NCBI GenBank assembly: GCA_964502615.1
Contig: CAZCXF010000004.1
Location: 7,199 to 71,198, forward strand
DNA: 64,000 bases
Direction of reading: 5' to 3'
Source of the DNA: an uncultured Candidatus Saccharibacteria bacterium
GTDB taxonomy: Bacteria > Patescibacteriota > Minisyncoccia > Phycocordibacterales > UBA9973
Every line of letters begins with the position of its first letter. The stretch's first letter is position 1. This document shows, one piece after another, positions 3,664-45,584 of this stretch. The notes below the pieces were generated by a model that worked only from the letters and a program-made list of their open reading frames with translations, had not been told where the DNA came from and did not search any database. The translations under genes were made by a program, and so were the position numbers.

Positions 3664-3668
3664 TAATC

Positions 3669-15760: not shown

Positions 15761-15774
15761 GTTGTAATTATAAT

Positions 15775-18852: not shown

Positions 18853-18875
18853 ATCTTTATTATTTTAATAATACA

Positions 18876-20787: not shown

Positions 20788-20797
20788 TAAATTTAGA

Positions 20798-22009: not shown

Positions 22010-22125
22010 TTTGAATAAATGATTTTATTGATTAATAATAATTAAATTTTCTACCCTTATTTTACCACAACAAGATACGAAATCCTATATATAAACTATA
22101 AGATGTGGATAACTTTGGCCTTTAG

Positions 22126-26612: not shown

Positions 26613-26660
26613 CCCCCAGATTAGTTTGTTTATAAAACAGACTGATCTGGGGTTTTTTTA
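26613..26660. terminator. Bidirectional rho-independent terminator (CCCCAGATTAGT…ACTGATCTGGGG + T7) between the convergent DUF218 and gtrA-like genes
   Basis: 12-bp stem with one mismatch, flanked by an A-run and a T-run. Confidence 0.6.
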
Positions 26661-27067
26661 TTGAACACAAACTTCTCGTATACAAAAAAGTTCCAACATG
26701 CAAGAATTGCTAAAGTAAAAACTTTTGAGAGCATTTTGTCGATATGTAATATTTCTACAAAAAAAAGCATTAATAATATATTTATACCGAGATTCACCAT
26801 TGATACTAAGAAAAAAAGAATTGCTTGTTTCTTAGTCTCACTCTTACTAGTATTTTGAAAAGTAATATACTTCTGCAAATAGAACCCCACAAAAACTGAA
26901 AGCACAAAAGATGTTATCGATGCTAATAAATACCAAACATGAAACCAATTTAAAAATATATAAAAAAGTACTAGATTAGATAAAGCTGCTGTTCCTCCAG
27001 CTAGTATAAATAGTATTGCTTTATATATTTTTTTATTTAGCATTGAGCCTATTTTTGTAAAATTCAA
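26630..27067 (-). CDS. GtrA-family membrane protein (polyprenyl-phosphate-sugar flippase-like)
   Basis: 145 aa, 4 TM. 'LFILAGGTAALSNLVLFYIF…YLLASITSFVLSVFVGFYLQKYITF' is typical of GtrA. Confidence 0.75.
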   Translation of the reverse strand: MNFTKIGSMLNKKIYKAILFILAGGTAALSNLVLFYIFLNWFHVWYLLASITSFVLSVFVGFYLQKYITFQNTSKSETKKQAILFFLVSMVNLGINILLMLFFVEILHIDKMLSKVFTLAILACWNFFVYEKFVFNKKTPDQSVL

Positions 27068-27998
27068 AAGTCTTCTTTATCCCCTCTTCAAAATTAGTTT
27101 TGGCCTTGAAGCCTAGCTCATCTCGAAGCTCATCTGTATTTATAGAATATCTAAAGTCATTTCCCTTTCTGTCTGGTACATATTCGATACTAGATTCATC
27201 CACTCCTCCCAGTGCTAGTATTTTATCTGTAATCTCTTTATTAGTCAGTTCGTTGTTGGCACCTATATTATATATTCCCCCCGATACTCCTTTGTGGAAA
27301 ATTATATCAATAGCTTCTACATGATCCCCTACATATATCCAATCCCTTACATGTTCACCTTTTGCATGAAGTGGAACTTTCTTACCTTCAAGCAAAAGTT
27401 TTATAAACTTAGGTACCAACTTTGTATAATCTTGATTGGGACCATAATTATTTGTACATCTAGATATTATTGTATCTAAGCCATACATTTCATGATAAGT
27501 GCGCACGATCAAATCGGCAGAAGCCTTTGATGCACTATATGGATTATTTGGTAAGAGAGGTGAATTTCTATCAAAAGATTTATCGCCGATTTTTAGTGAT
27601 CCATAAACTTCATCCGTTGATATCTGGAAAAATCTATTAATTTTATATTTGCGAGCAAGTTCAAGCAAGTTGTGAGTACCTAAAATATTTGTCTCTATAA
27701 ATAGTCTCGGGTCTTCGATACTTGCGTCTACATAACTCTCTGCAGCAAAATGTATTATGTCAGTTATCTGATAAAGGGAGAATATTTTTTCAAGTGAAAC
27801 AGTATCTCTTATATCTACTTTCTCAAACTTATAATTCTCTTCTTTATCTACCGTGACATTCGCAATATCTCCTGCAGAAGTTAGGCAATCGATATTTATA
27901 AAAAAGTAATTCTTATATTTAGGTACATAAATATTTAGGAAATTACTCCCTATAAATCCCATGCCTCCTGTGACCAAAATTGTTTTATCGTATTTCAT
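27033..27998 (-). CDS. rfbB: dTDP-glucose 4,6-dehydratase
   Basis: 'ILVTGGMGFIGSNF' and 'YSASKASADLIVRTYHEMYGLDTIISRCTNNYGPNQ' catalytic YxxxK. 321 aa. Confidence 0.9.
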   Translation of the reverse strand: MKYDKTILVTGGMGFIGSNFLNIYVPKYKNYFFINIDCLTSAGDIANVTVDKEENYKFEKVDIRDTVSLEKIFSLYQITDIIHFAAESYVDASIEDPRLFIETNILGTHNLLELARKYKINRFFQISTDEVYGSLKIGDKSFDRNSPLLPNNPYSASKASADLIVRTYHEMYGLDTIISRCTNNYGPNQDYTKLVPKFIKLLLEGKKVPLHAKGEHVRDWIYVGDHVEAIDIIFHKGVSGGIYNIGANNELTNKEITDKILALGGVDESSIEYVPDRKGNDFRYSINTDELRDELGFKAKTNFEEGIKKTFEFYKNRLNAK

Positions 27999-28004
27999 AG
28001 GTTA

Positions 28005-28745
28005 CTATTTGTGGAAAAGTTTTGTCTTAAAGCCCAGTTTCGCCAAAACATAATAGAATAATACTCCAAAAGTAGCAAATGCGTAAACAATGCTTCTTTT
28101 TATACTTATAGATGTATGTTCTTTCATATATAGTCCTCTGACTGGTACTTCTCCTATTTTGAATTTTTTATATACGATCTGAGCAATTATTTCAAAGCTA
28201 AATAAATAGTCATTAGAAGTATGGGTTAAATCTACACTTTGTATTGACTCTTTGCTATATACTCTTGCTCCAGTGTGGAGCTCGCTAGTACGAACTCCTA
28301 AGATTATCCGATCAATAAAAGTAAGAGATAGGTTGGCTATATATCTTATTAATGGCATCTTATCTTTGAGTGGTTGCCTTAAATCTGTAAATCGTGACCC
28401 AAGCACTAAACCATAACCATTTTTTATTTTTTCAAGTGCGGGTTTTATAAAAGATATATCATACTGACCATCACCGTGTATTTCTACTATATAATCTGCT
28501 CCAAGTTCAAGCGCTTTATTCATCCCGTATTTCATATTACCTCCATAACCAAGCTTAGGATGAGAAAAACATTTGATTCCAAGTTTCTTGGCAACTTCTT
28601 CAGTATTATCTCCAGATTCATCATTTGTAATAAATACTTCATCGAGTACGTCCATTGGAAGCTTTTTTTGTAAATCTTCCAAAAAATTTGCACACTTATA
28701 TGTAAGGATTACTCCTATTACTTTTTTATGATTATTTATTTCCAT
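28005..28745 (-). CDS. Family 2 glycosyltransferase (polyprenyl-phosphate sugar synthase, GtrB/Dpm1-like)
   Basis: 'VIGVILTYKCANFLEDL…ITNDESGDNTEEVAKKLG' GT-A DxD-region motifs. C-terminal TM. Confidence 0.75.
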   Translation of the reverse strand: MEINNHKKVIGVILTYKCANFLEDLQKKLPMDVLDEVFITNDESGDNTEEVAKKLGIKCFSHPKLGYGGNMKYGMNKALELGADYIVEIHGDGQYDISFIKPALEKIKNGYGLVLGSRFTDLRQPLKDKMPLIRYIANLSLTFIDRIILGVRTSELHTGARVYSKESIQSVDLTHTSNDYLFSFEIIAQIVYKKFKIGEVPVRGLYMKEHTSISIKRSIVYAFATFGVLFYYVLAKLGFKTKLFHK

Positions 28746-30792
28746 CTTGTAACTTTGATTCTTCTTCAGCGATAATTTCTTGCCATTTTTTTACATCTGG
28801 ATTATTTGGTTCTATTTCCATCTCTTTTTTTACCATCTCTTTTGTTCTTGCCAACTGTCCAGTTCTAAGATACGCAAGAGCAAGATAACTATAAGATTCC
28901 CAAGTTCCCCAACCATTTTTTATTGCGTTTTCTAAATATATAGCCGCTAAATAAGGATTTGAATTAGCTTGATCAGCTTTTCTTAATTCTGTTCTACCAA
29001 GTACCATCCATACCTTCCCTCGAGTTGGATCCAAAGAAACAACTTTTTGATAGAATTGCATAGACAGATCAACTCTACCTACCAGATTACATATATCTGC
29101 AGCAGCTATCAAATCTTGAGTTTTGCCAGAAGTAGATAGAAAATCTATTTTGCTTAAAATATTATCGTTTGTTATCTGATATTTATCTATAACTTTTTTA
29201 TTTTCTATATTGTTTTTAACCAATATAACTACACTATTATCTAAATATACCCAAACCCAGCTAGGATCGTATATTCTTCTATAAATAAAATCCCGCGCTC
29301 CATCTAGGGCGTCATAATGATAAAAAATAATAGTATTAAAATTGTAACTTTTGTCCAATTGTTTCCAACTATCCTCGTTCCTGATTGCCGGTAAATATAT
29401 ATCACTAAAAAAAGAAGCGGAGTAAGCATCTCCAAAACGATTATCAGTGAAAACTTTTTCTTTTGGATATAGTGTTCCTATTAAATAACTTCCTATATCA
29501 GTATCATTAAATATAGGACCCTTTAGATTATTGGCTTTAAAAAATTTAATTGGATCTTCAGAATATCTGGTCAGGCCTATCCCTTGTTCCATCGAATTCA
29601 TTAATTTAGTCTGACCAGCAAAAATAAGATAAATTATTAGAACAGGAAAGAATCCAAAAAAAGTATATCTTATTAAATTCTTAAAATTTGGCAGTTTTGA
29701 ATATAATTTTTCTTTCAACCAAATAAATGGACCATTTAAATTGCTAACAACTGCAGGTAAGAAAATTATTGCAAACAATGGTAAACCTCTTACTATAATA
29801 AATGGCAAAATAGTTGAACCAATAGAAGCTAAAAAATAGAATATGTAGTTATCTCCCCAAATTGGTAAGTGGTTCTTCTTACGGTAGATAAATGCGATTA
29901 CGAAACTTAAAAACAAAACTAGTATCGAAGGGAAAAATACTGTAGCAGATATTGTATCCCATCCAGGCGCTAAATTATGAGCATTTATTATAGGCGTGAT
30001 CTCTCCACTTGAGATTGGAAAAGTGGCAGAAGTATTGACCATCAATGAGAAAACAACACCCCATAATCCAAATGGGTTTATAAAAGATACCGCTATCAAA
30101 GATACAAATACAATTGAGAGTTTTTTAATTATTTGATTTTTAAAGATTTTCTTTCTATTTAGAATTAAATTTTGAACCAGAAAACCCAAAACCATCATAA
30201 TACCTACCCCAAACAAGAGATGAGTATTAACCCATATAAGCTGTATCGGTATTAACCAAAAAATCCTTTTACTATTGGGATTCTTCTGTAAATGTAGAAG
30301 TAAATAGAGGAATAGAACAACAAATAGAAAACTAAATATCTCTGGCCTGAAAGCAGTACGATTTATAAGTATAAATATTGTGGGTATTGAGAGTAATGCG
30401 GTAAGATAAAAACTTTTATTTTTTTGGGTTAGATAAAAAAGTAATCCAAACATCCCAAGTAGAAGGATGATTTTAAATATAACCATACCACCGAAACCAA
30501 CTGTCAGATAAAGAACATAGGCAAGGACTCCATAGAGCCAGTGATGATTTGCAAAGTGTTGATTGGGTTCTGTATATGAGTAAACATTTTTTGTAAAAAC
30601 ATCATAATTCCCCGCTAACACATCTACTCCGTTTTGCATTTGGCGAGGTAAATCTTGTGCTACTGGTAAACTGATTTTATACACAAGAAAAGATCCATAC
30701 AGTGCTATGAGTAGTGTAAAAATTATTATCTTGAAAGATTTCGAGTTAAGCATCGGAAATTTATTAAGCGATTTATAACTTTCTGGAATCAA
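28732..30792 (-). CDS. Polytopic membrane protein (~12 TM) with C-terminal TPR repeats; probable GT-C-fold glycosyltransferase (TMTC/PMT-like, GtrC-analogous)
   Basis: Many TM helices, then 'FYQKVVSLDPTRGKVWMVLGRTEL…YSYLALAYLRTGQ' TPRs. Operon context with GT2 and GtrA. Confidence 0.45.
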   Translation of the reverse strand: MIPESYKSLNKFPMLNSKSFKIIIFTLLIALYGSFLVYKISLPVAQDLPRQMQNGVDVLAGNYDVFTKNVYSYTEPNQHFANHHWLYGVLAYVLYLTVGFGGMVIFKIILLLGMFGLLFYLTQKNKSFYLTALLSIPTIFILINRTAFRPEIFSFLFVVLFLYLLLHLQKNPNSKRIFWLIPIQLIWVNTHLLFGVGIMMVLGFLVQNLILNRKKIFKNQIIKKLSIVFVSLIAVSFINPFGLWGVVFSLMVNTSATFPISSGEITPIINAHNLAPGWDTISATVFFPSILVLFLSFVIAFIYRKKNHLPIWGDNYIFYFLASIGSTILPFIIVRGLPLFAIIFLPAVVSNLNGPFIWLKEKLYSKLPNFKNLIRYTFFGFFPVLIIYLIFAGQTKLMNSMEQGIGLTRYSEDPIKFFKANNLKGPIFNDTDIGSYLIGTLYPKEKVFTDNRFGDAYSASFFSDIYLPAIRNEDSWKQLDKSYNFNTIIFYHYDALDGARDFIYRRIYDPSWVWVYLDNSVVILVKNNIENKKVIDKYQITNDNILSKIDFLSTSGKTQDLIAAADICNLVGRVDLSMQFYQKVVSLDPTRGKVWMVLGRTELRKADQANSNPYLAAIYLENAIKNGWGTWESYSYLALAYLRTGQLARTKEMVKKEMEIEPNNPDVKKWQEIIAEEESKLQDGNK

Positions 30793-31759
30793 ATTCCTTA
30801 TAGATTACTCCTGAAAGATCTTGGATTATTTTAGTTAGATCATTAAAATCATTACCTCGAGTCATTATACATATGAGATAAGGATTTTTAGGATAGTAGA
30901 CTATGCCACAATCATGTAGTTGTTTTTTGTTGTTAGGTAGATCGGAGCGTTCTCCGAATTTATGCGCAACTTTTAAATTTTTAGGAACTCCTTTTATTAT
31001 GCCATCATTAAAATCAGTATCACTTAATATAGATAAGGCTTTTTCAGATGTCTCTTGTTTATTGAAGAATGAAGAGTGGAAAAGCTGAGTAAATATACCT
31101 GCGTATGATTTAACTGTTACAGTTTGGTCATAGTCATTTTTGGGGTCTACAATACCCAAATCTACATCTGTTTCAAGCAATAAATCTTCTTTAGGACTAG
31201 CAATACTCAAATATTTTAAGAGGCCAAAATACGCACGGTTGTCAGAATACTTTATCATTCTTCTTAAGAGGTCATCTATTGAGTATTCTACGTCTTCCTG
31301 TATTAACGCTTTCGGAGAAAAAAATTGTTCTGAATAGTCCTCTATTTTAGGAAAGGCTATTTTTCTATCTAGGAAATTATCATGCCTATCTTCGTTAATT
31401 CTAAGATATGTTATAAGTAAGGGTAATTTTAGAAGACTAGCGGGAGAAAATTGTATATGTTCATCTATGCCCATTGTTGGGCCATTTATAAGGTCACGAA
31501 AATATATTGATACATTATCGGCTTTTTTTTCTGCAATCTTTGTCGCAATCATATTCTCTAGGTCATTTTTTAATTTTATATAGTTACTTTTATTAACTAC
31601 ATATTTTTGCATACATTTTAGCTTTGGGTTTATATGTTCAAATTTGGAAGAAACACAATTTTGACTATTATTTATTGAACTGCTAGTAAAAAACCCAGCA
31701 AAAAAAATGATGGTAAATAAAAATAACTGTAAGATTATTCTTTTAAAATTCTTACTCAT
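30773..31759 (-). CDS. Secreted class-A beta-lactamase-fold serine hydrolase (PBP/beta-lactamase-like)
   Basis: SxxK 'PASLLK', SDN 'YSDN' and a KxG-like 'HKFGE'. Signal/TM N-terminus. Confidence 0.5.
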   Translation of the reverse strand: MSKNFKRIILQLFLFTIIFFAGFFTSSSINNSQNCVSSKFEHINPKLKCMQKYVVNKSNYIKLKNDLENMIATKIAEKKADNVSIYFRDLINGPTMGIDEHIQFSPASLLKLPLLITYLRINEDRHDNFLDRKIAFPKIEDYSEQFFSPKALIQEDVEYSIDDLLRRMIKYSDNRAYFGLLKYLSIASPKEDLLLETDVDLGIVDPKNDYDQTVTVKSYAGIFTQLFHSSFFNKQETSEKALSILSDTDFNDGIIKGVPKNLKVAHKFGERSDLPNNKKQLHDCGIVYYPKNPYLICIMTRGNDFNDLTKIIQDLSGVIYKEFDSRKL

Positions 31760-31762
31760 AAA

Positions 31763-34700
31763 TTAGGTTGTTGTTGGTGGCGGAGTGTTGTCAGCTGGTG
31801 GTGGGTTACTACCTCCATCTGTTGGTGGTTGCGTATTGTCAGCTGGTGGTGGGTTACTACCTCCATCTGTTGGTGGTTGCGTATTGTCAGCTGGTGGTGG
31901 GTTGTTACTGCCTCCATCTGTTGGTGGCGGATTTGTTGGAACTGGATCAGGAGTAAGGCCTGTTTCCTCTAAGATACTTTCAAATATTTTTGGGTCTTTT
32001 ACTGAAAATACTGTCCATGAGAATCTTATATCTCTATTCGGTGTTTTATTCAAAAGTATTGTGAACCCTGTTTGGTCTTTATCGACTACTATATATCTTA
32101 TATCTTCTCCAAACAAACTCGCTGCGGCACTATCATCAACATTGTCATCTTTTTCAAAAGTCATAGATGCGTTTACAACTGGAGTTGAAATATATGGCTT
32201 ATCAAATACTATTTTTGCTCTCCTGTCCCCTGCTTTTATGAGTGCATAACCAGCAGTATCTTTATTAAACAATGGCGGTAATGAAAATTCCGCTTGCTTG
32301 CTGAAAACAACATCACCATCAAATGTTGTTGTATTGGAGAAGAAGGATAAGCCATTAAATTTCGCTTGACCTGCAAATGAACTATCACCTGTAACTGAGA
32401 GCATATTCATTGTAAATCCATTTACATTTCCATCGGCATCTTTAGTCAAGAAACTTTCGATAACTTTTAGCCTTGTATCGAGGTCTGTTCCACTTGTTGT
32501 AAGCCCTGCGATAGTAGTACTTGCAGTAGTAAGATCTTCTTGCAATTTTTTAATATCTGCTTGAGCAATAGTCAAAGCACTAGATAGTGTATTCATACCC
32601 TCCGCAGTTAGAGTAAAGGCTTGTTGTCCCTCAGCAAGAGAATTAATCTGATCGGTAATTGCTTGTACTCCGGATATATCTCCCAATTTAATATCGTGTG
32701 CTGTGACAGTACCTTTAAATGTTGCATTGCCAAGACTATCAAATACGATAGCTGGATTTACACTATTTGAAGTATTTGTACCATCTTTAGTACCTATTAT
32801 AAACTTACCATTTTCGTTTAGTATTAGATTTATATCATCACCCGTAGCAGATTTGAGAGTATTTGTTGCAAGTACATCCGTCGTAATTTTTGGAGTTATT
32901 ATTTCAACTGCAGCAACTAGCCTATCTGCATATAAGTCAGACATGTCTAGTGTATTTGCATTAGGATCTACCGTTGGACCTGGAGCAGTGCGTGATGCGA
33001 CAACATCGCTTAACAATTTAGCAAGAACTTTTTGACCAAATTCCTGTTTATCAGCAACTGGGGCTTCTGGAGTATTTGGTGTATCACCTGTATTTGGAGT
33101 AAGACCACTTAGTAGAGTAGAGTCTTCAGTTATAGATTCCAACTTCTGACCGTTGTAGTATCCAGGTTGAACGAACAATATAACCACACCCATACGATCT
33201 GGATCAACATTTGGATCATCAACTGCAGGATTCCAACCAGTCAAAGCTTGACCTATAACATGACCTGCTTTTGTAGCCTTCATAGCCCAGCCTGGATGCG
33301 AGGATGTTGTAAGATAATCACCTGGTTTGATAATACCATTCATAGCAGATACTTTTACTGGAACACGTCCAGCCAAGGCAAGGACAACACTCTTTGCTCC
33401 TTGTCTTAGCATTCCTGAACCCATCACCATATCTGGTTGAGTTGATATAACTCCAGCAACATTAGAATCGTATTTTTTACTACTCATTTTTACACCGGCT
33501 TCAAGATCAGGATCAAATGATACGACATCAGCAGCTTCAATAAGTGGATCATTAGTTGCATAAAATTCTCCGAGGTCGGCACCAGATGCTCCACGAATTT
33601 CAATAATACGTACTTCTCCACGGCCTCCGTTACCTCCAGCACCTCCGGTAACTCCAGGACCTCCACCTCCTCCACCACCACCAGGATTTCCTCCGTTACC
33701 TCCAGCACCTCCAACTCCAGCAGCAGCATTGTTCGCTCCTCCTCCACCTCCTCCGTATCCAGCAGTACCAGTAGAGTTTGCATCTGCAGAGTTTGCACCA
33801 TTTCCTCCAGCTCCTGCTGCGGCTCCTCCTCCAGCTCCTCCTCCTCCAGCAACCCAGTTTTGAGTTCCTCCAGATTTTCCTCCAGCTCCTCCTGCTGATG
33901 CAGCGTTGTTTCCAAGAACTTGTCCTCCAGCTCCTCCTCCACCTCCTCCCCATATTGAAGTTCCTCCAGCTCCTCCTGTAACAAGAGCAGCGTTGTTTGA
34001 TCCAGCAGTTGAACCTCCTCCACCTCCTCCGTATATTGCAGAACCTCCGGCACCAGCGGCAGTGTTTGTAGCTGTACCTCCTCCACCTCCTCCGAATTGA
34101 CCTCCGGATGCGTTAGCAGCACCTCCGTTTGGACCTCCTCCAGTACCTCCAGTTGCAGATGGAGAGTTTGAACCGACAGCGCCAGTACCTCCTCCACCTC
34201 CTCCACCAGACCCAGCAGCAGCTATACCTCCCTTACCTCCTCTACCTCCACCATAAGCTTCAATAAATACAGTTGATGTAGCAGAACAAGCCGCATTTAC
34301 AGAGACACATGCAGTATCTCCAGCAGTACCGTTTGTAGCACTTGCACCTCCAGTCACAGCTGCAGGAGCTTGAACGTTTACAGCAGATGAAGTAAAGTTT
34401 GCACCATCAAATGTTTTTGTAACATATGCTCCTCCTCCACCTCCTGAACCTCCCATACGAGGGTTTGCTACTGCAGCTGCCTGTCCTCCACCTCCTGAAC
34501 CTCCTCCTCCGATTGCTTCAATAATCAAAGATTTAACACCTGCTTTTTTGGTGTAAGTAGTGTTTGAAGTAAATACGTTGTAGTTTACATCACCACAAGT
34601 TGCGACAGTGATAGTACCGTTTGTATCCATATTCATACAACCGTTTGCTGATGGTTTGTCAGGAAGAGTGATTGTATAGTCTGTAGTTATTGAAGCTGGT

Positions 34701-37700
34701 GCACTTATACTAACTGAATTTGTTCCGTTACCTGTATTTGTTTCAAACATTCTTACACCAACATCCCAACCAGCACCGATTGATATCGCACTTTCCGTTG
34801 CAGATGTACCTGTTATATTTGCAATTGTTAGACCATTGAATAAATCAGTAGAGCTTACTCCTGTAGATATTGGTGTGAATGCAAGATTTATACCAGATAT
34901 TGTTCCACCAGATGTCATGTCTCCTGCTTCCCAAGCAATAGAAAGTGCTTCTGTACTAGCTGTAACCATTCCAGTTGTTCCACCGGTAAGATCTATTTTC
35001 ATTGCATCGGCTGTTGGAATAGTTCCATTTGTTGTATTTTCAATTGTAAATTGAGTATCTGCAGCATCTCCATATAGAAGGTTTAATCTGTCAGAAGCAG
35101 TTGTTTTATTTATCACGCCTGCTGATGAAGTAAATGATCCTGCTCCACCTCCAGTAGCATCAGTAGCACAACTCCAGACTGAAGTTGATTCAGTCCATTT
35201 TAATATTTCTCCGTCTGCACAACCTTGAAGCAAACCTATTGCTGTAGTATTTCCTACTTCAAGACCAGAACCGTTAGATGTAGAACCAGTACCGTCTGAA
35301 CTTGTCAGAGTAAGGGCTGTACTTGCATCGATTGTTCCTGCTGCAGTCGTAAGAGTTATATTACTTGAACCAGCTTGAATAGTACCTTGGGTATCCAAGT
35401 TACCACTAGTTGCAACTGTAAAGTTTGTAAAGCCAATCAAATTTGTACCAGCCGTTGTTCCCCCGATAACTGTATCCCAACCAGAACCAACTCTAATAGC
35501 AGTTTCTGTCGCAGTTCCAGCAGTTATACCTCCTATGTCCAATCCTATTTGAGTTCCAGCAGAACCAGAAGAAGCTCCGTTTATCAGTATTCCTGTAGAT
35601 GAAACAACAGAAGTAGAAGCAGTATTATTTACTCTTAATCCATTCCAAGTACAGGTCGCTCCACCAGTACACGCAGTAAATGTTGGTGCACCCACATTTA
35701 TAGCATTGAGTGTTTTTACCCCTGAAGTTGCATTGGTTGTGTTGAAATTTGAATCAATATTAATACCATTTGTAGTTGAAGTAAGTGCACCTCCTGTTGC
35801 CGAACCATTACTTACTGAAAGGTTAACAAGGCTTCCTGTCTGACCATTTGCATGACTATATGTTGCACCAGAGACATTGATTGCCCCTCCGGTGGTAAGT
35901 GTTCCATTAGAAATTCCGACATCGAGAGCATACCCAGTAGTGAGGTTGTTAGCAGAGATTGATTGCACTTTACCTGAACTTGCACTGTTTGCAGTTATAT
36001 TGAATATTCCTGTACCAGTGTAAACACCAGTATTTGTAATTCCAAGGTTTGTACCTGTAGTTGCATTAGAATCTATATCAAAGAGTGCATCTGGAGTAGT
36101 ATCAGCTATACCGACATTTCCAGAAGTATCAATTGTAAGAGGAACTATTCCACCAAATGGATAATAAATAAAGAATTTACTAGCAAGACTGAGGGCTGTT
36201 TCATTTGTATTTCCCACTCCAATGCTCCACTCCTGTCCACCCGCGATTGCCATTTGAGTATATCCATTTGTTGCGGTAGATGTATTTAGAATTTTAGTAA
36301 CAGGAGTATAAGCAGCACCATCATTTGTGAAATATCCAGCAAAATTATTATTACCTCCAGTAGCCTGACCATATACTCCGTAATTGTCTGCTCCACCACT
36401 TGATGCGTTACCATATACACCGATATTTACCGGAGTTCCGGCGGTTCTCGTATGACTATTGTCGAAATATCCAGCGTAAGTCGTAATTGTAGTCCCAACG
36501 TTACCAGCCAAAGTTACACTTAATCCTTTTTGTCCGTTTGCAGCAGTAGTTCCGTTTGAAGAAAGTGATAGCAATGATCCTGATGTAAGCCCATTCCCTG
36601 TAATACTTGCAAGCGTACCAGTTGTTGCAGAGTTAGCAGTAAGATTAAATATCCCAGTTCCTGTATAGACACCAGTGTTCGTGATGCCGAGATCAGCACC
36701 GGTTGTATTTGTGGTGTTGAGTGTTACAACATCATTTGCTGTTGTTGCTGAGAGTGTTGTACCAGAACGTGACCAATATCCGATAGCACCAGATGTAGGA
36801 GCAGTTGTAGTGAGAGTTCCGTTACCACCTGAAGTATATAGTGGACCGTTAGAGGTTAGAGCTGAGAATTGAATTGTTCCAGAAGATATAATACCGGCTG
36901 CTGAAGCAATAGCCCCAGAAGAGTTGACTTGGAATTCAGATCCTGGGCCTACAGTAAATAATGAGTTCGGACTAATATCACCTCCAATATTTAAATTATT
37001 ACTTGTGTCTATATATATAGATGTTCCTGCATTAGAACCTATCTGTACTGGATAATTACCTGATGAACCAAACATTGATCCGCCTCCATCAGCATAAATA
37101 TATGCTTCGGCATTTGTACTTGCATCACGAACTGAAATTGAAGAGGAACCATTATTTTGGAAAATTGCTAATTCAGTACTTGCTATGTCTGATACATCAT
37201 TACCTGCACCGACATGGAGTTTATATTGAGGAGCTGTATTAGCTATACCCACATTCCCCGCATTAAATATAGCCGCATAATTATTATCCGCACCTGATGC
37301 TGTTGCGTATAGACCAATCGCAGTTGATGCTCCCGCAGTATCTCCTGTCGCTGCGAAATATCCACCGTAAGTATTTACTGTTCCTGCAGCTGTTCGGCCT
37401 GTGTTGTCTGCCGTGTTGTATGAACCATATAAAGTATAAGTACCAGTTGCAGTATCTGCACCTGTTTTTGAGGCGTTGTTATAGATACCATATGCTGTCT
37501 GACTTACTGATGCCCCTGCAACTACAGCAGAAGATGTCCAGAAATTTTGAAGTCCGTATGATGCAGTGAGTGCACCTGTTCCTGTTTGTGTGGTTGAGAA
37601 TCGTGCTCCAGGTACAAAATCACTGCTAGATGTTGCGTTTAGTCTTAACACACCACTTGAACTTGAAGCTGTCGCATTTGTAAATGTAAACCCGCTAGTA

Positions 37701-40700
37701 CTTGAAGTTGTAAATTCAGCATTTCCTGCAACAGTAAGAGCGCTTGTTGCACTAGTAGTTTGTATGCCAACATTTCCTGCTTTATCAATTATAAATGGAC
37801 TACTATCTGTATATGTACCATCATCATTCACTCGAAATGCTAGAGCATTGGTACCAGTTTGCGCAGTTGTAACATTAAGTGTTGTACCCTCTCCACCTGC
37901 AGCACCAAGTAGTCCGAGTTTAAGCGCAGTACCATCGACATCAACATCAGCATTGTTGTATTCTATCTTTGCAAGGTCTCCTGTCCAAGAAGTTCCCGGT
38001 GCACCTGTTGCAGAAATATTAAGAAGTCCACCAGTTGTAAATGCTGTTGAAGTCGAAGTGAGATTAAATAATGTACCAGTCGTCAAAGCATTTGCTGTCC
38101 AGGTAAATGGATTCTGTGTTGAAGCAGTAGACCAATCCCATTGTTGTGCATAGTTTGTGTTGTCGATTGTATTTGTACCAGTTGCAAGAGTAATGGTATT
38201 GAGTGAAGTACTTCCTGCTCCTCCACAAGCACCAGCTGAAATGAGTCCAACGTTATCAGTCTTTATACACTGAGTTCCTCCACCTCCATAAAACGGTGCA
38301 GTAATTTGTCCATTATAATCAATTGCAAACTTAGAAGTTGCATTATTTTTAATATTCAGAAGATTCCCTCCTGTTTGTGCACCTGATGTATCAAATTTAT
38401 ATGCATCACCGGAACCAGAAGCAGTGATACTTGCAGAGAGAGTGTTGTAACCAATAGTAAGATTATTTGAAGCTATAGAATATGAACTTGTTCCGTAAAC
38501 ACCTCCAGCCACAGCTAGATTCTTGTTTATAATAACAATGTCTGCGGAACTATATACTATGTTTGCATCAGAAACACCGATTGTTGACGTATCATTTCTA
38601 GCAATATTTATTCCACCTGGACCTGCAGATATTAAACCATTTGATGATGCAATTTTTGCTTTCACAACACCACTTGCAGTTGAGTAAAAATCTCCAGCTT
38701 GATCTGTATCCCCTGTCACTTGAAGTTTGTAGGCACCAAGATCAGAAGTTGAACCGATTTGAAGTTCACCAGCAGTATTAAATCTTCCTCCTTCGTTAGG
38801 GCTGTCGAAGGAATCATCGTAATAAAAATACAGAGCTCCAGAATTACCACCGCCAATACCTGCAAAAGTATTATTTCCTCCGTTAAGGAACAATATACTA
38901 TCTGTACTAACTCGAGCACCCCCAGATCCACCACCATTTGCATTTAGACGTATTACTCCACCAGCTATATTTATATTACTTGAAGAAGCCCAGACAGAGT
39001 CACCACCTGATGAGTACAATGATCCAATTGTCCCTGTACCGAAATCTGTTTGACCTGTGATTTTAGTATTTCCAGTAACTTGCAGTGCATATGTACCAAG
39101 ATCAGTCATTGAACCAATTTGGAGTTCGCCAGCAGAGTTTATTCTCATTCTCTCTCCTGCAGTTCCGGTCGAGAATGCAAGGGTATTTGCTCCAGGACTC
39201 CAAATACCTGTATCTAAATCTCCGTTAAATGTATATGAGGGTGCAGTAGTTCCTCCAAGCTGGTTAGCAATAACTCCTGTTTGGGTAATATATAAACCAG
39301 AACCATTCTGTAATGTAAGATTAGTAGTGTCTAGAGTAACTGGAATTGTAAATAATACATGATTTGCACCTGAAATGGTAGCTCCGGCACTTGCATTTCC
39401 TGTAATACTTAAATATATAGGATCATTGCGAAGTAAAATAGAAACACCGCCTGTTTCAGTCCCTGCTACTTTGAAATAACTTCGCGTGCCATCACTAACA
39501 TCAAGTATTCCTGTTGGAGTTGCTGTACCAATTCCTACCCTCCCTCCCATAAACGCTGCCGCATATGTTGTATCTGCAGTGTTGGCGGTTGTAGCGTCGA
39601 CATAAAGACCGGTGACAGTGTTAGCAAGTGAGCCAGCATCGGTAAATGAAATATGTTGGCCATAGAGAGTGTCTGCATTTGTTGCTTGGTTGTTTGTGAG
39701 AGCAAGTTTTTCTCCATAATATGTCTCTGATGCTGCAGAGCCAGAAACTGTCACAGTGTTTAAGAATCCAGATGAACCAGTTGTAGTAATAGCGGAACTA
39801 GTGAGAGCAAGTGGTGCACCAGTTGCTGCGTTAGTAGAGATAGTTACAATATCGTTAGCGGTGGCAGGAGAAAGTGTGGTGCCACTTCTTGACCAGTATC
39901 CGATCGCGCCAGAGGTTGGGGCAGTAGATGTAAGATTTTTTGAGCCGTCTGTATAAACAGCAGAAGAAGCAGTGAGACCAGAGACATTTAATGAATCGAC
40001 AATTGCGTTGCCTGTGACTTGAAGCTTAAATGTTCCAAGGTCAGAGGTTGATCCGATTTGTACTTCTCCTGTCTGGAAAATATGTCTCGTAATACTACTG
40101 TTACCATACGCAGCAGTATTAGAACCAAAGCCGGTGGTGTTATAGCCGAGTACTATTTCGTTGGTATCCCCATCTGCTAGAGCTTTGGTGCTTGCTCCTA
40201 AATAAACAGATGTGTTAGAGGTCTGGTTTGAAGTTGAGCCATCTGCAATAACTCCTCCGGCAAAATACCCTAGAGCGGCATTATAGTAACCTGAGGTGTT
40301 TCTTTCGAGAGCATAGATTCCAAAGGCTGAGTTGGAATAACCTGTGTCGTTAAGTTTGAGAGCATACATTCCAAAAGCTGAGTTGGAATAACCTGTGGTA
40401 TTGGTGGTGAGAGCTTGGACTCCGAAACCAGAATTATAATAGCCGGTAGTATCGGAATTGAGCACTTGGACTCCGAAACCTGAATTATTTGAGGCCTGAT
40501 ATGTTGCTGTCGCTGTGCTTCCCATTGTCAAATTACCGGCACTTAATCCTACAAAAGTATTACTACCGTTTGGTCTTGCGCCACCTCCAGTTGGATGCCT
40601 GTAGTTATGAATAAAAGGTGTTCCATCTTTATAGATAATTCCATTTGAAGCATTAGTGTCTGTTTGTTGATCTGCTATTCTAAAATTACCTGTGATTTCT

Positions 40701-43093
40701 AGTTGAGCTTGTGGTGTTGCTGTACCAATCCCCACATTACCTTGATCGAAAATCGCAGCGTAATTACCACCAGTTGCACCAGATGCAGTTGAGTAAAGAC
40801 CGACGTTGACTGCACTTGCACCAGTTCGTGTATTTGAAAAATATCCACCATATGTAGTTTGTGCACCAGTAAGCGCACCAGTGAGTGCAACATTTAATCC
40901 TTTTTGCCCGGTAGTTGCGGCGGCACTCGATGAAGTTAGGGAGAGAATATTTCCAGAAGTTGCTGAATTAGCAGTTATCAATCCAGCGTTGCCTGTTGTC
41001 GCTCCAGATGTAGTTAAAAAATCACCGTTGTTATCAACTTGAAATTGAGAAGAGGAACCTACAGAGAATAAATTAGTTGGGCTTACTGTACCTACACCAA
41101 CACTACCTCCACCAGAAGGAACTACGATTGCATAGTTATTATCAGCTCCTGTTGCTGTTGCGTACAAACCATAAGCTGTTCCTGCAGGGGCAGTTGCTGA
41201 AAAATATCCTCCGTAAACATTTGGCCCACCTCCTGTTCCTGTGGCTGTTCCGTAAATAGCATATTGAGTATTGTTACTTGCAGAAGTACTACTATACAAA
41301 CCGTAATTTATAGCACCAGTACCGTCATGACCATTTGAAATGTAAGCTCCGTAACTTGAAACAGAACTAGTAGCATTAGTTCCGGTAAGAGCAATATTTA
41401 ACCCTTTCTGATTTGTAGCAGCTGCTGTTCCACTTGAAGAAATATTTAAAAGTGACCCAGATGTTAGTGTTGAAGAAGCTAAATACATACCAGTTCCAGA
41501 AGTGAGTGAATTAAAGTTTCCAGCAAATGCAGAAGTTGTTGTCGTACCTGTTGTCACTCCAGAGTTGATAGTAAATGTTCCTGCACCTGCGAGAGTATTT
41601 GTTAATGATTGACCAGATGTTGGAGCAAATGTTATAGCGCCAGTGTCGAGGAATGATGCAATGGCTGTACCGTTGTCTTGGATTAATAAATCTCCAGTTG
41701 ATGCCAGATTAAATTTTATATCAGCAGTACCATTTGAAGTTACTCGTAGTGGTGAGGCAGTAGAAGTTGCGAGTGTTGAGATATCTACTAGTGATTGGTT
41801 TCCAGCACCATTTGCAGCTGCAGTGGTTTCACCAAAAGTAAATGCTGTTTTTGCTGCTGTAGTTAGTGCCCAGTTCCAAACAATTGCATTGTCACCGTTA
41901 CCAATTGTTGCAGTTGTGTTTGCTGCGGCGACATTGTTAAGCGGAACTGTGAAAGATGATGATGCAATCTTCTCGACTACTCCAGTAGAAGTGTTACGTG
42001 TTAGAACTTCATATCCACCAGCAGACGCTGAAGGTGAGGTTGCTAGAGTTAGTATTCCAGTACTTCCAATTCGAAGCTTTTCACTCACAGCTGTACCTCC
42101 ACTTTGTGTTAGAAAAATCAAGTCACCACTTTCTGAGCCTGCTGTGTTTCCAAGATTAGTAATCTGAATACTTGCTCTTGCTATTTGCCTTGTACCATTG
42201 GCAGCTGAGAATAGCAAACCATTCGAATTTGAATTAGTCATGAAAATACCACTGTTACCAGCTGTATTGCCTCCGTTACCGAAGTAGAAAGGATATGAAA
42301 GATCAGAGCCAGCATTAGTGAGTCTGAGTAGAACAGTAGTATTACCTTGGTTATTTATTTGATTGGTAACAGTAAGGACACCGTTGGCTTGAATATAGTT
42401 TGAGAACGTCTTATCTCCAGCGAATGTCTGTGTTCCTGTTGTAACTACACCGCCAAACGATGCAGATGCTGGTTCAAGATTAAGAACTGAGCCTGTAATT
42501 GTAGCGCCGTTTGCATTCGGAGATGATCCAATTGCAGAAAGTGTTGTTACTCCTGTTGCAGTTGATCCTTCAATTATGTTTCCAGTTGAATCTACTTGCA
42601 AAGCAAAAGTCGGAGTACCAGTAAACGTACCAGCTCCGTATTGTGCGAGTTTAAACTTACCACTGTTCAAAAATCTTCCGACTTCTGTCGCACCGTTGTT
42701 TCCAGTTTTGAAAATAATATCTGCACCAGTTGTACCAACTCCAGAAGTTGATTTGAAAGTTAGTGTATCTGTAGTACCAGTACCTCCGATCAAAGTTGAT
42801 CCACCAGATAGACCGATATTGTTTGCAATGAGTGTAGCGTTAACAGTTGGACCAGTGTAAGTAACAAGTGAACCTGCGTCGTTGAACTGAAGGTGTCCGT
42901 CACCAATCTCAGCCCATGGGTGACCAGGGTTTGGAGTAGTAGCTGTTACGATACCAACGATTGAGAAAGCGAGGAATAGGAAAAGTACTGAGTAGACAGC
43001 ATAGTGAAGAGAAAATCTAGGGTGAATTTTCTTCGCAATTTTTGTTAGAAATCGTATGTATTTTTGATTGTTGTTTTCGGACATAAAATACAA
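31763..43093 (-). CDS. Giant (3776 aa) N-terminally anchored Thr/Gly/Ser/Ala/Asn-rich beta-repeat surface protein, with tail-fibre-like G-N-V-G-I-G-T-x-x-P motifs, a poly-Gly region, a conserved globular domain and a C-terminal Pro-rich repeat
   Basis: Single uninterrupted 11.3 kb ORF. N-terminal TM 'VYSVLFLFLAFSIVGIVTA'. Recurring 'GNVGIGTATPQAQLEI' / 'GRVGIGTATPTGILDV' motifs and internal duplications ('TAPTSGAIGYWSRSGTTLS' twice). Gly-rich GGGGxGG block. C-terminal 'PPTDGGSNPPPADNTQ' x3. Confidence 0.7.
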   Translation of the reverse strand: MYFMSENNNQKYIRFLTKIAKKIHPRFSLHYAVYSVLFLFLAFSIVGIVTATTPNPGHPWAEIGDGHLQFNDAGSLVTYTGPTVNATLIANNIGLSGGSTLIGGTGTTDTLTFKSTSGVGTTGADIIFKTGNNGATEVGRFLNSGKFKLAQYGAGTFTGTPTFALQVDSTGNIIEGSTATGVTTLSAIGSSPNANGATITGSVLNLEPASASFGGVVTTGTQTFAGDKTFSNYIQANGVLTVTNQINNQGNTTVLLRLTNAGSDLSYPFYFGNGGNTAGNSGIFMTNSNSNGLLFSAANGTRQIARASIQITNLGNTAGSESGDLIFLTQSGGTAVSEKLRIGSTGILTLATSPSASAGGYEVLTRNTSTGVVEKIASSSFTVPLNNVAAANTTATIGNGDNAIVWNWALTTAAKTAFTFGETTAAANGAGNQSLVDISTLATSTASPLRVTSNGTADIKFNLASTGDLLIQDNGTAIASFLDTGAITFAPTSGQSLTNTLAGAGTFTINSGVTTGTTTTSAFAGNFNSLTSGTGMYLASSTLTSGSLLNISSSGTAAATNQKGLNIALTGTNATSSVSSYGAYISNGHDGTGAINYGLYSSTSASNNTQYAIYGTATGTGGGPNVYGGYFSATAPAGTAYGLYATATGADNNYAIVVPSGGGSVGVGTVSPTNLFSVGSSSQFQVDNNGDFLTTSGATTGNAGLITANSATSGNILSLTSSSAAATTGQKGLNVALTGALTGAQTTYGGYFSNTRTGASAVNVGLYSTASGATGGNYAAIFDQGNVGIGTATPQAQLEITGNFRIADQQTDTNASNGIIYKDGTPFIHNYRHPTGGGARPNGSNTFVGLSAGNLTMGSTATATYQASNNSGFGVQVLNSDTTGYYNSGFGVQALTTNTTGYSNSAFGMYALKLNDTGYSNSAFGIYALERNTSGYYNAALGYFAGGVIADGSTSNQTSNTSVYLGASTKALADGDTNEIVLGYNTTGFGSNTAAYGNSSITRHIFQTGEVQIGSTSDLGTFKLQVTGNAIVDSLNVSGLTASSAVYTDGSKNLTSTAPTSGAIGYWSRSGTTLSPATANDIVTISTNAATGAPLALTSSAITTTGSSGFLNTVTVSGSAASETYYGEKLALTNNQATNADTLYGQHISFTDAGSLANTVTGLYVDATTANTADTTYAAAFMGGRVGIGTATPTGILDVSDGTRSYFKVAGTETGGVSILLRNDPIYLSITGNASAGATISGANHVLFTIPVTLDTTNLTLQNGSGLYITQTGVIANQLGGTTAPSYTFNGDLDTGIWSPGANTLAFSTGTAGERMRINSAGELQIGSMTDLGTYALQVTGNTKITGQTDFGTGTIGSLYSSGGDSVWASSSNINIAGGVIRLNANGGGSGGARVSTDSILFLNGGNNTFAGIGGGNSGALYFYYDDSFDSPNEGGRFNTAGELQIGSTSDLGAYKLQVTGDTDQAGDFYSTASGVVKAKIASSNGLISAGPGGINIARNDTSTIGVSDANIVYSSADIVIINKNLAVAGGVYGTSSYSIASNNLTIGYNTLSASITASGSGDAYKFDTSGAQTGGNLLNIKNNATSKFAIDYNGQITAPFYGGGGTQCIKTDNVGLISAGACGGAGSTSLNTITLATGTNTIDNTNYAQQWDWSTASTQNPFTWTANALTTGTLFNLTSTSTAFTTGGLLNISATGAPGTSWTGDLAKIEYNNADVDVDGTALKLGLLGAAGGEGTTLNVTTAQTGTNALAFRVNDDGTYTDSSPFIIDKAGNVGIQTTSATSALTVAGNAEFTTSSTSGFTFTNATASSSSGVLRLNATSSSDFVPGARFSTTQTGTGALTASYGLQNFWTSSAVVAGASVSQTAYGIYNNASKTGADTATGTYTLYGSYNTADNTGRTAAGTVNTYGGYFAATGDTAGASTAIGLYATASGADNNYAAIFNAGNVGIANTAPQYKLHVGAGNDVSDIASTELAIFQNNGSSSISVRDASTNAEAYIYADGGGSMFGSSGNYPVQIGSNAGTSIYIDTSNNLNIGGDISPNSLFTVGPGSEFQVNSSGAIASAAGIISSGTIQFSALTSNGPLYTSGGNGTLTTTAPTSGAIGYWSRSGTTLSATTANDVVTLNTTNTTGADLGITNTGVYTGTGIFNLTANSATTGTLASITGNGLTSGSLLSLSSNGTTAANGQKGLSVTLAGNVGTTITTYAGYFDNSHTRTAGTPVNIGVYGNASSGGADNYGVYGQATGGNNNFAGYFTNDGAAYTPVTKILNTSTATNGYTQMAIAGGQEWSIGVGNTNETALSLASKFFIYYPFGGIVPLTIDTSGNVGIADTTPDALFDIDSNATTGTNLGITNTGVYTGTGIFNITANSASSGKVQSISANNLTTGYALDVGISNGTLTTGGAINVSGATYSHANGQTGSLVNLSVSNGSATGGALTSTTNGINIDSNFNTTNATSGVKTLNAINVGAPTFTACTGGATCTWNGLRVNNTASTSVVSSTGILINGASSGSAGTQIGLDIGGITAGTATETAIRVGSGWDTVIGGTTAGTNLIGFTNFTVATSGNLDTQGTIQAGSSNITLTTAAGTIDASTALTLTSSDGTGSTSNGSGLEVGNTTAIGLLQGCADGEILKWTESTSVWSCATDATGGGAGSFTSSAGVINKTTASDRLNLLYGDAADTQFTIENTTNGTIPTADAMKIDLTGGTTGMVTASTEALSIAWEAGDMTSGGTISGINLAFTPISTGVSSTDLFNGLTIANITGTSATESAISIGAGWDVGVRMFETNTGNGTNSVSISAPASITTDYTITLPDKPSANGCMNMDTNGTITVATCGDVNYNVFTSNTTYTKKAGVKSLIIEAIGGGGSGGGGQAAAVANPRMGGSGGGGGAYVTKTFDGANFTSSAVNVQAPAAVTGGASATNGTAGDTACVSVNAACSATSTVFIEAYGGGRGGKGGIAAAGSGGGGGGGTGAVGSNSPSATGGTGGGPNGGAANASGGQFGGGGGGTATNTAAGAGGSAIYGGGGGGSTAGSNNAALVTGGAGGTSIWGGGGGGAGGQVLGNNAASAGGAGGKSGGTQNWVAGGGGAGGGAAAGAGGNGANSADANSTGTAGYGGGGGGANNAAAGVGGAGGNGGNPGGGGGGGGPGVTGGAGGNGGRGEVRIIEIRGASGADLGEFYATNDPLIEAADVVSFDPDLEAGVKMSSKKYDSNVAGVISTQPDMVMGSGMLRQGAKSVVLALAGRVPVKVSAMNGIIKPGDYLTTSSHPGWAMKATKAGHVIGQALTGWNPAVDDPNVDPDRMGVVILFVQPGYYNGQKLESITEDSTLLSGLTPNTGDTPNTPEAPVADKQEFGQKVLAKLLSDVVASRTAPGPTVDPNANTLDMSDLYADRLVAAVEIITPKITTDVLATNTLKSATGDDINLILNENGKFIIGTKDGTNTSNSVNPAIVFDSLGNATFKGTVTAHDIKLGDISGVQAITDQINSLAEGQQAFTLTAEGMNTLSSALTIAQADIKKLQEDLTTASTTIAGLTTSGTDLDTRLKVIESFLTKDADGNVNGFTMNMLSVTGDSSFAGQAKFNGLSFFSNTTTFDGDVVFSKQAEFSLPPLFNKDTAGYALIKAGDRRAKIVFDKPYISTPVVNASMTFEKDDNVDDSAAASLFGEDIRYIVVDKDQTGFTILLNKTPNRDIRFSWTVFSVKDPKIFESILEETGLTPDPVPTNPPPTDGGSNNPPPADNTQPPTDGGSNPPPADNTQPPTDGGSNPPPADNTPPPTTT
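31787..31930. repeat. 48-bp perfect tandem DNA repeat (x3) at the 3' end of the giant gene, encoding PPTDGGSNPPPADNTQ
   Basis: 'TTGTCAGCTGGTGGTGGGTTACTACCTCCATCTGTTGGTGGTTGCGTA' repeated head-to-tail. Confidence 0.8.
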
Positions 43094-43155
43094 CTATATT
43101 ATATCATAGTTGTATAGCGAAAACACTCGAAAAACTGTTAGATTTATTGATTTTT

Positions 43156-45188: not shown

Positions 45189-45584
45189 TTATTTTGACAC
45201 TACTATTAACCCAGAAACAACTGGTGCGACAATGTGAAACCATGGGTGGAATTTTTTATAATTACCAAATTTAAATCCATACCAGAAAAATATTCCTGTT
45301 AATGAAAGTGCAATAGTAAGTGGAACTTGGAATTGATTATTTACTTTAGTAAAAATAAAATAATACATGTAGATATAAGCACCAACTGCAAAAAACCAAT
45401 CAAAATCTCTTATTGCATGAAGTAATTTTGTTCTCTTGGAATTATTCTCTCTTAAATAATGAAAGATGGGTGAGAAAATACTAATTCCTAGCGCAAAGAA
45501 AAAATACAACCACTCATGTACTATTGCGGAAGCTATGACTGGAATGAATAGAAAAATATTGGATGTGATTATAAATTTCTTCAT
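45189..45584 (-). CDS. Hypothetical 4-TM membrane protein between pheT and pheS
   Basis: 131 aa and hydrophobic. No homology recognised. Confidence 0.4.
   Translation of the reverse strand: MKKFIITSNIFLFIPVIASAIVHEWLYFFFALGISIFSPIFHYLRENNSKRTKLLHAIRDFDWFFAVGAYIYMYYFIFTKVNNQFQVPLTIALSLTGIFFWYGFKFGNYKKFHPWFHIVAPVVSGLIVVSK

Follow-up and report, generated by a model that had tools for sequence, protein, structure and literature searches.

Patescibacteria are ultra-small, mostly uncultured bacteria that are thought to be attached to host cells. The window analysed here, a whole stretch of 64,000 nucleotides from an uncultured Candidatus Saccharibacteria bacterium (contig CAZCXF010000004.1), carries a giant gene followed by genes for a beta-lactamase-fold protein, a polytopic protein of the GT-C fold with tetratricopeptide repeats (TPRs), a GT2 glycosyltransferase, RmlB and GtrA. 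The locus joins a tail-fibre-like fibre with a lectin-like tip, a complete lipid-carrier glycosylation kit and a wall-enzyme-like partner, and it raises the question of what this kit glycosylates. We tentatively favour a three-component lipid-linked system that would O-glycosylate the adjacent fibre, and we hold this answer with slightly more doubt than belief. Coordinates are those of the window, and features lie on its minus strand unless the plus strand is named.

The polytopic protein (28732..30792; 686 aa) is the proposed transferase, and its AlphaFold2 model, built on an alignment of 46 homologues (40–65% identical), reached a predicted local distance difference test (pLDDT) score of 91.9 and a predicted template modelling (pTM) score of 0.90. 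When this model was compared with the PDB by Foldseek, the best matches were STT3 (8agb_A, E 7e-6), AglB and PglB, and also ALG12, with E-values from 7e-6 to 2e-3 and TM-scores of 0.39–0.50 overall (yeast and human STT3 at E 7e-6 to 5e-4). O-antigen ligases or polymerases (WaaL/Wzy) occurred neither among the 50 best Foldseek matches nor in Pfam. As predicted by the model, therefore, the protein has a GT-C fold and not an O-antigen ligase or polymerase fold, which is what the first-pass annotation, made from the letters of the DNA, had expected of it. That annotation had also described about 12 transmembrane (TM) segments with C-terminal TPRs; the TPRs (28735..29160; Pfam/NCBIfam and model) are there, while about 11 TM segments (29602..30792) are counted when hydropathy is combined with the positive-inside rule. 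The N-terminus is predicted inside, and the C-terminal 290 aa, comprising a mixed alpha/beta domain (29161..29601; model and topology) and then the TPRs, outside.

The conserved residues of this protein are arranged as might be expected of an external active site. Asp47 (codon 30652..30654) in the first external loop is invariant in the 46 homologues and in a set of 15 sequences, and it lies 5–7 residues past the first TM segment, within a 40-residue loop that is poor in positive charges, while positive charges cluster in alternate loops. Further invariant residues (R50, R145, R149, E151, H191, E264 and R335) lie in or border external loops. Of the DE/DD motif that the first-pass annotation suggested for this loop, the Asp is invariant, but the loop-1 motif is x-D-L-P-R and the residue preceding the Asp is variable, so there is no conserved Asp-Glu pair.

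By sequence, the membrane core of the protein belongs to no described family. Pfam and NCBIfam matched only its TPRs, the profile of the 46 homologues matched only TPR proteins among PDB sequences, and a profile without the TPRs matched no PDB sequence at E <= 10. Pfam at E <= 10 on 15 TPR-less sequences gave scattered single matches and no family for the core. Membership of several families was considered and rejected: PMT (GT39), for which neither the window protein nor any of 15 homologues gave a PMT or PMT_2 match at a threshold as loose as E <= 10; TMTC/TMEM260, as the external C-terminal TPRs are present but DUF1736 and DUF2723 matches are not; and YfhO, with no match in the Pfam scans. 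Searched against clusters at 50% identity, the TPR-less core profile nevertheless collected 21,661 of them at E <= 1e-3 and 13,626 at E <= 1e-10, mostly of 505–545 aa and without TPRs. Thousands of clusters without a Pfam model or a sequence match to a solved structure point to a large undescribed GT-C family, and the 686-aa protein falls in its TPR-bearing branch.

The nearest solved folds also allow the 686-aa protein to be read as a highly divergent oligosaccharyltransferase of the STT3/AglB/PglB type, which would attach a preassembled glycan in one step to Asn, Ser or Thr residues of the giant protein. The ten best Foldseek matches were all oligosaccharyltransferase catalytic subunits (TM-score 0.42–0.50), the last TM segment is followed, as in these enzymes, by a mixed alpha/beta domain, and D47, R145, E151, E264 and R335 may be colinear with the catalytic and lipid-phosphate residues D56, R147, D154, E319 and R375 of PglB. 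We consider this reading quite improbable. Membership of the STT3/AglB/PglB sequence family was rejected in the absence of a Pfam STT3 match, of a PDB sequence match to the TPR-less profile at E <= 10 and of the WWDYG motif, at whose position the conserved motif is NDxDIGSY, and one distant member of the core family matches PMT_2 instead, below threshold (21.8 bits against a cut-off of 26.1). N-glycosylation of the giant was likewise rejected, since its N-x-S/T sequons show no excess (77 observed against 72 expected, z = 0.65) and are inconsistent among relatives. Moreover, an initiating phosphoglycosyltransferase, a Wzx-type flippase and further glycosyltransferases are all missing from the operon, and its combination of GtrA with a DPM1-like GT2 is the signature of monosaccharide-phosphate-lipid donors.

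Evidence for O-glycosylation of the fibre from such a donor comes from synteny. A scan of one genome per species turned up relatives of the GT-C protein in 371 genomes; the analysis covered 79 loci, 34 with close orthologues (37–51% identical) and 45 with distant paralogues. A giant ORF rich in Thr, Ser and Gly lay at most three genes upstream on the same strand in 21 of the 34 close loci and in none of the 45 distant ones (Fisher p = 1.2e-10, for counts that are not phylogenetically independent), and the co-occurrence with giants, which had been proposed as a check in related genomes, was thus seen from the GT-C side. The part matched in these orthologue-linked giants corresponds to residues ~3160–3770 of the window giant. 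A beta-lactamase-fold gene adjoined the GT-C gene in 19/34 close against 1/45 distant loci, and GT2 did so in 16/34 against 1/45. In the close loci L004, L014, L016 and L024, a giant-like ORF lay farther upstream on the same strand. On an independent 609-kb contig (JGI Ga0315912_10000014), the order is giant, GT-C/TPR, GT-C/TPR, GT2, GtrA and SDR; the giant of L080 has at least 2,071 aa and a C-terminal module match of E 1.5e-72, and the tandem GT-C/TPR paralogues of L080/L081 (6249..10309; 678 and 667 aa) are found there with no beta-lactamase-fold gene. The ~680-aa genes that follow the GT-C gene in L020, L021 and L025 had been considered as second GT-C copies, which a profile search rejected.

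The same counts bear on a different explanation, namely that GtrA, GT2 and GT-C decorate an envelope component other than a protein (peptidoglycan, a glycolipid or a polymer of the teichoic-acid type) or act on envelope proteins at large, and neighbour the giant only through a shared cell-surface island. We regard this as unlikely, though seriously to be reckoned with. The link with giants is limited to the TPR-bearing subfamily, the neighbours in the 45 distant loci being unrelated to giants, and in L080 it outlasts both the loss of the beta-lactamase-fold gene and the tandem duplication of the GT-C gene. In addition, the TPR-bearing GT-Cs of known function (TfpW, TMTC and TMEM260) modify proteins, and the closest solved folds are those of protein-modifying oligosaccharyltransferases.

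The candidate acceptor is the product of the giant ORF (31763..43093; 3,776 codons counted from TTG). Its composition is 15.5% Gly, 14.2% Thr, 11.5% Ala, 9.9% Ser and 8.1% Asn, so that the earlier label of a Thr/Ser-rich protein is correct but incomplete, Gly and Ala being high as well. A hydropathy scan found a single N-terminal hydrophobic signal or anchor of the Sec type at residues 27–55 (42929..43015; FSLHYAVYSVLFLFLAFSIVGIVTATTPN). Pfam and NCBIfam on the whole giant, and Pfam on six slices of 630 aa, returned nothing significant. PHROGs matched a phage tail-fibre segment at residues ~1275–1332 (39098..39271; phrog_28766, E 1e-9) and a glycine-rich domain at residues ~2703–3045 (33959..34987; phrog_863, 'tail fiber assembly', E 6e-10), and windowed composition has Gly peaking at 40% in residues 3001–3200. 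As a side observation, the GT-C gene of L004, L014, L015, L016 and L024 is separated from the beta-lactamase-fold or giant gene by genes for a glycine-rich secreted protein of 350–375 aa (T+S+G 45–50%) and a protein of ~180 aa; by eye and unaligned, the glycine-rich protein looks like the Gly-rich domain of the giant ('...IEAIGGGGGG...').

The C-terminal module of the giant (residues 3150–3725; 31919..33646) is common to the giants beside GT-C orthologues. The AlphaFold2 model of the last 630 residues (pLDDT 75.6) predicts a preneck-appendage-like beta-barrel (33152..33574), then a helical stalk and an H-type-lectin-like domain (32006..32254). The first domain matched preneck appendage and uncharacterised Caudovirales proteins in BFVD (E 1e-10 to 1e-8) and, weakly, phi29 gp12 in the PDB (E 1.8e-3). 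The last domain matched Helix agglutinins in the PDB (E 3e-3 to 8e-3) and H-type lectins in BFVD (E ~1e-3 to 4e-3) by Foldseek, and Pfam H_lectin was found in 9 of 40 homologues. The protein ends in a Pro/Thr/Ser/Asp/Asn-rich tail (31766..31957) with three repeats of PPTDGGSNPPPADNTQ in translation, encoded by a 48-nt tandem repeat present 3.2 times (31772..31927). Pro-rich, Ser/Thr-rich tails occurred in 18 of 26 giant-like ORFs against 12 of 1013 other ORFs, and this Pro/Thr/Ser-rich tail is the likeliest candidate for an O-glycosylation target. The giant is probably an adhesin with the architecture of a phage tail fibre, which an epibiotic cell would secrete or anchor.

The donor side of the module is represented by the GT2 gene (28005..28745; 246 aa; PF00535 E 6e-13), the RmlB gene (27033..27998; 321 aa; TIGR01181, 367.6 bits against a cut-off of 365.1) and the GtrA gene (26630..27067; 145 aa; PF04138 E 6e-24). 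The best NCBIfam matches of GT2 were PpgS (2e-17), AglJ (7e-15) and Dol-P-hexose transferase (5e-14), and it is probably a GtrB/DPM1-like polyprenyl-phosphate sugar synthase, while the small GtrA-family membrane protein is a candidate flippase for the lipid-linked sugar. The joint presence of GtrA, GT2 and a polytopic GT-C, from which a three-component system had been proposed, was confirmed: PF04138, PF00535 and the GT-C fold all occur within a single string of overlapping genes. The full set recurs in L003, L006, L009, L011, L017 and L080, with GtrA recurring in these loci and in L010, and RmlB recurs beside GT2/GtrA in L009, L011 and L017. Convergent with the operon, on the plus strand, lie genes for a nucleoside diphosphate (NDP)-hexose C-methyltransferase (23735..24982; PF08421/PF08484) and an RmlD-like 4-ketoreductase (24979..25791; PF04321; rmlD TIGR01214 at 202.6 bits, below the cut-off of 224). 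Together with RmlB, these genes recur beside GT2 in ~14 related loci, and the C-methyltransferase and the reductase probably make the donor sugar.

Seen from the giant side, the association looks different. Eighty metagenome loci were collected that code for proteins related to the giant in its C-terminal module. These proteins typically have ~1,000–2,950 aa where no contig end truncates them, and a T+S+G content of mostly 30–42%. A Beta-lactamase2 gene was among the next two genes in 19/48 of these loci, sometimes duplicated (L088, L103, L117, L119, L127-L129, L132, L139-L143, L145, L147, L150, L160 and L161), and Pfam on 128 downstream genes found Beta-lactamase2 19 times and LytR_C 7 times. 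Where 3.5 kb or more of downstream sequence was available (49 loci), GT-C was present in only one, and that locus is 90–96% identical to the window. The conserved pair is therefore the giant with the beta-lactamase-fold enzyme, which suggests a pairing of the fibre with a penicillin-binding protein (PBP)-like enzyme. The co-occurrence of giant and GT-C, supported from the GT-C side, thus failed in reverse, and the glycosylation module appears as an addition in one clade and not as a general partner of the fibre.

This reverse count is one of several points that weigh against the fibre as acceptor, besides the non-independence of the synteny counts. The 25 most frequent Pfam families of the 128 downstream genes include no GT2, GtrA or GT-C family. 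Among the close GT-C loci, 13/34 miss a giant within three genes upstream, and when farther, split or truncated giant-like ORFs are counted, ~7 are still without any within 10 kb. The label 'TMTC/PMT-like GT-C' holds for the GT-C fold, whereas membership of PMT, TMTC and TMEM260 failed by every sequence test. The NCBIfam scores of GT2 (52–63 bits) lie below every cut-off (325–375), and it has a single C-terminal TM segment (residues 219–237), not two. RmlA and RmlC were not found among the window ORFs scanned, up to 53 kb, and the set of RmlB, an RmlD-like reductase and a C-methyltransferase suggests a branched 6-deoxyhexose rather than rhamnose. The analogy with Pmt/Ppm1 holds only in part, as the sugar genes (RmlB, RmlD and C-methyltransferase) point to a deoxyhexose, not mannose, and to our knowledge no polyprenyl-phosphate synthase using a dTDP-deoxyhexose has been described. 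The giant itself is a plausible candidate acceptor, and the case for a glycan on it is an indirect one.

Several of these observations would fit an envelope acceptor, as would the large size of the GT-C core family, whose members mostly are TPR-less and have other neighbours. The scarcity of GT-C genes beside giant relatives is one such observation; in addition, the secreted-protein genes at 16.9–23.7 kb are also syntenic with the module in L003, L009, L010 and L011, the co-conserved beta-lactamase/PBP-like enzyme hints at cell-wall chemistry, and in Bacillus and Listeria, lipoteichoic acid is glycosylated by systems of the same three-component logic (PMC5836110, PMC7389260). The fibre is still favoured as acceptor because of the TPR domain, the protein-modifying nearest folds, the restriction of synteny to the TPR branch and the conserved Pro/Ser/Thr tails. 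The dedicated acceptor proposed in the first-pass annotation is thus partly supported, by the fold and by synteny from the GT-C side, and partly undercut by the giant relatives that usually have no GT-C gene. Of the two refuting conditions named in that annotation, one on the fold and one on co-occurrence, both were examined and neither overturned the proposal.

Glycosylation of the fibre might proceed as follows, starting from the gene content, the conserved residues, the synteny and the GT-C fold that were observed. In the cytoplasm, RmlB, the convergent RmlD-like reductase and the C-methyltransferase would make an activated 6-deoxyhexose, possibly C-methylated, which the membrane-anchored GT2 would load onto polyprenyl phosphate. 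GtrA would then carry the lipid-linked sugar across the membrane, and on the outer side the ~11-TM GT-C might pass it to an external acceptor, with Asp47 of the first external loop as the catalytic residue and with the acceptor held by the extracytoplasmic alpha/beta domain and the TPRs. The acceptor would most likely be Ser/Thr of the giant fibre, still unfolded on leaving the Sec channel, with the Pro/Thr/Ser-rich tail as the prime region. Predicted in this scheme are which sugar and which lipid carrier are used, how the loaded carrier is flipped and what accepts the sugar.

The beta-lactamase-fold gene (30773..31759; 328 aa; PF13354 E 9e-29) lies between the giant and the GT-C gene. Its product keeps SxxK (PASLLK), SDN (YSDN) and KxG (HKFGER) motifs and four Cys in 23 orthologues, and by these motifs it is classed as a membrane-anchored class-A beta-lactamase/PBP-A-like serine enzyme. 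It scored 53.9 bits against a cut-off of 200 for the bla_class_A equivalog model, and no conserved Glu166-type residue was seen; a true beta-lactamase role is therefore unlikely, and a PBP-like role in wall remodelling or processing would be plausible. This broadly conserved core of giant and beta-lactamase-fold enzyme would also suit a non-catalytic role for the polytopic TPR protein, as a membrane assembly or holding factor that exports and anchors the fibre together with this enzyme while the sugar genes serve an unrelated pathway. TPR domains are often scaffolds, and GT2 adjoins GT-C in just 16/34 close loci. We consider such a role very improbable indeed, as the Asp, Arg, Glu and His residues in the external loops are strictly invariant at 40–65% identity, as a catalytic site would be, and genes for GT2, GtrA and NDP-sugar enzymes are repeatedly found immediately downstream, in many cases with overlaps. 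Returning to O-glycosylation of the fibre, its fullest version would have a Patescibacteria-specific GT-C of oligosaccharyltransferase-like fold that gained TPRs and acts co-translocationally on one dedicated giant tail-fibre-like adhesin, with a branched (C-methyl) 6-deoxyhexose from polyprenyl phosphate, an undescribed donor class, and with the beta-lactamase/PBP-like enzyme processing the fibre or coupling it to the wall. To this whole combination we give only a small probability.

The arrangement of the genes is compatible with their expression as one unit. All six minus-strand ORFs of 26630..43093 appear in the ORF listing of the window at the positions first given for them, and the same-strand string with overlaps described after the giant gene was confirmed. 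From the giant to the GtrA gene, successive genes lie 3 nt apart, overlap by 20 nt, overlap by 14 nt, lie 6 nt apart and overlap by 35 nt. For the giant gene, an ATG at 43084 is a likelier start than the listed TTG three codons earlier, and a TATAAT box 12–17 nt 5' of this ATG (43084..43110) points to a transcript whose leader is very short or missing. Promoter and terminator scans within the operon stayed at shuffle level throughout, the exception and sole strong terminator-like structure being a hairpin of 18 bp at the 3' end of the GtrA gene (26614..26652), which contains GC and is followed by a T-run. This hairpin is a probable terminator common to the two convergent units, and its position as the only strong one makes co-transcription of the six genes compatible, and their joint expression consistent, with the sequence.

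The flanks contain housekeeping genes, including pheS/pheT, a UvrD-like helicase-nuclease, gyrB, thrS and others. Judged by the names of homologues, the organism belongs to the Patescibacteria, close to Parcubacteria/Paceibacteria. The G+C content is 41–43% within the giant gene (32001..42000) against 31–38% in the flanks, which is explained by the load of Gly, Ala and Thr codons and is thus no evidence of foreign origin. Downstream of the module, 23159..23677 encodes a 172-aa single-TM protein without a Pfam or NCBIfam match, whose homologues (39–59% identical) occur in ~20 loci with the GT-C/TPR gene, as an uncharacterised co-conserved partner. It is followed by a run of secreted proteins (16877..23217) of 381, 289, 298 (Big_6), 343, 403 and 363 aa, of which the 343-aa protein has a weak WxL-interacting peptidoglycan-binding domain. 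The whole region of 16.9–43.1 kb looks like one conserved cell-surface island. Farther on, a type IV pilin-like gene with an N_methyl motif (14138..14641) adjoins two paralogous SBP_bac_3 solute-binding proteins (14684..16857), and on the other side a hydrophobic ORF of 131 aa without a family match (45189..45584) lies between pheS and pheT.

Donors in the form of lipid-linked monosaccharides are already known, as is the modification of exported proteins by GT-Cs that use them. A search of open-access papers found no description of the module in Patescibacteria, and its occurrence there is new, as are the GT-C family without a Pfam model or solved-structure sequence match, the physical coupling to a giant tail-fibre-like adhesin and a PBP-like enzyme, and the deoxyhexose and C-methyl sugar genes in the module. 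If the fibre is the acceptor, the locus would provide a case of dedicated protein O-glycosylation in the Patescibacteria radiation and a function for the TPR-bearing branch, not for the TPR-less one, of a GT-C family of >13,000 clusters (50% identity), as well as a compact gene set (GT2, GtrA, GT-C and tail peptide) that could be tested in a heterologous host. If instead an envelope component is the acceptor, the locus would mark an unannotated envelope-glycosylation family common in Patescibacteria.

Compared with known systems, the giant resembles phage tail fibres, phi29 gp12 and H-type lectins in its barrel, its PHROG tail-fibre body matches and its lectin-like domain; unlike phage tail fibres, it is chromosomal, lying between pheST and housekeeping genes, has a Sec-type anchor and is far longer. 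With STT3/AglB/PglB, the nearest solved folds, the GT-C protein shares the invariant Asp early in the first external loop and the alpha/beta domain after the last TM segment, whereas sequence similarity and WWDYG are absent, the giant has no sequon enrichment and the operon is one for a monosaccharide-lipid donor. The YfhO/GtlB, CsbB/GtlA and GtcA systems of single-membrane bacteria follow the same GT2/GtrA-family/GT-C logic (PMC5836110, PMC7389260, PMC8035078), but their acceptor is teichoic acid, and their GT-C belongs to a different family with neither TPRs nor linkage to a giant gene.

Among protein O-glycosylation systems, PMT/Ppm1 of Actinobacteria and fungi, TMTC1-4 and TMEM260 also use a polyprenyl-phosphate monosaccharide from a DPM1-type GT2 for Ser/Thr O-glycosylation of exported proteins (PMC10214176, PMC11292533, PMC7759382). 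TMEM260 and TMTC are protein O-mannosyltransferases that combine GT-C with TPRs (PMC10214176, PMC11292533); their TPRs are luminal, and they are specific for a class of substrates. The window protein differs from all of these in having no PMT, PMT_2, DUF1736 or DUF2723 match, no conserved Asp-Glu pair and no MIR domain, and in its non-mannose sugar genes. The streptococcal GtrB and PgtC2 glucosylate Ser/Thr-rich disordered regions and are similar in that, in a single-membrane bacterium, a GT2-made polyprenyl-phosphate monosaccharide is transferred outside by a GT-C to Ser/Thr-rich, Pro-containing disordered tails (PMC12041528). PgtC2, however, belongs to the YfhO family, has no TPR and serves many substrates encoded elsewhere, whereas the window protein has no YfhO or other Pfam core match; moreover, the sugar there is glucose from UDP-glucose, while the window has dTDP-deoxyhexose genes.

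TfpW, the pilin O-arabinofuranosyltransferase of Pseudomonas aeruginosa, is a GT-C with C-terminal TPRs whose gene lies beside that of its pilin substrate and which, in E. coli, depends on a GtrA-like protein (bioRxiv 10.1101/2020.04.19.049825). Its substrate is a small pilin and not a 3,776-aa fibre, and its donor is decaprenyl-phosphate arabinofuranose made by the DprE1/E2 route. Compared by description only, TfpW and the window protein are alike in having ~11 TM segments and a large external C-terminal TPR domain, and in a gene directly downstream of that of the known or candidate substrate; TfpW also acts on several Ser/Thr residues, together with a GtrA-like protein and genes for a lipid-phosphate sugar, as is proposed here for the glycosylation of the giant fibre.

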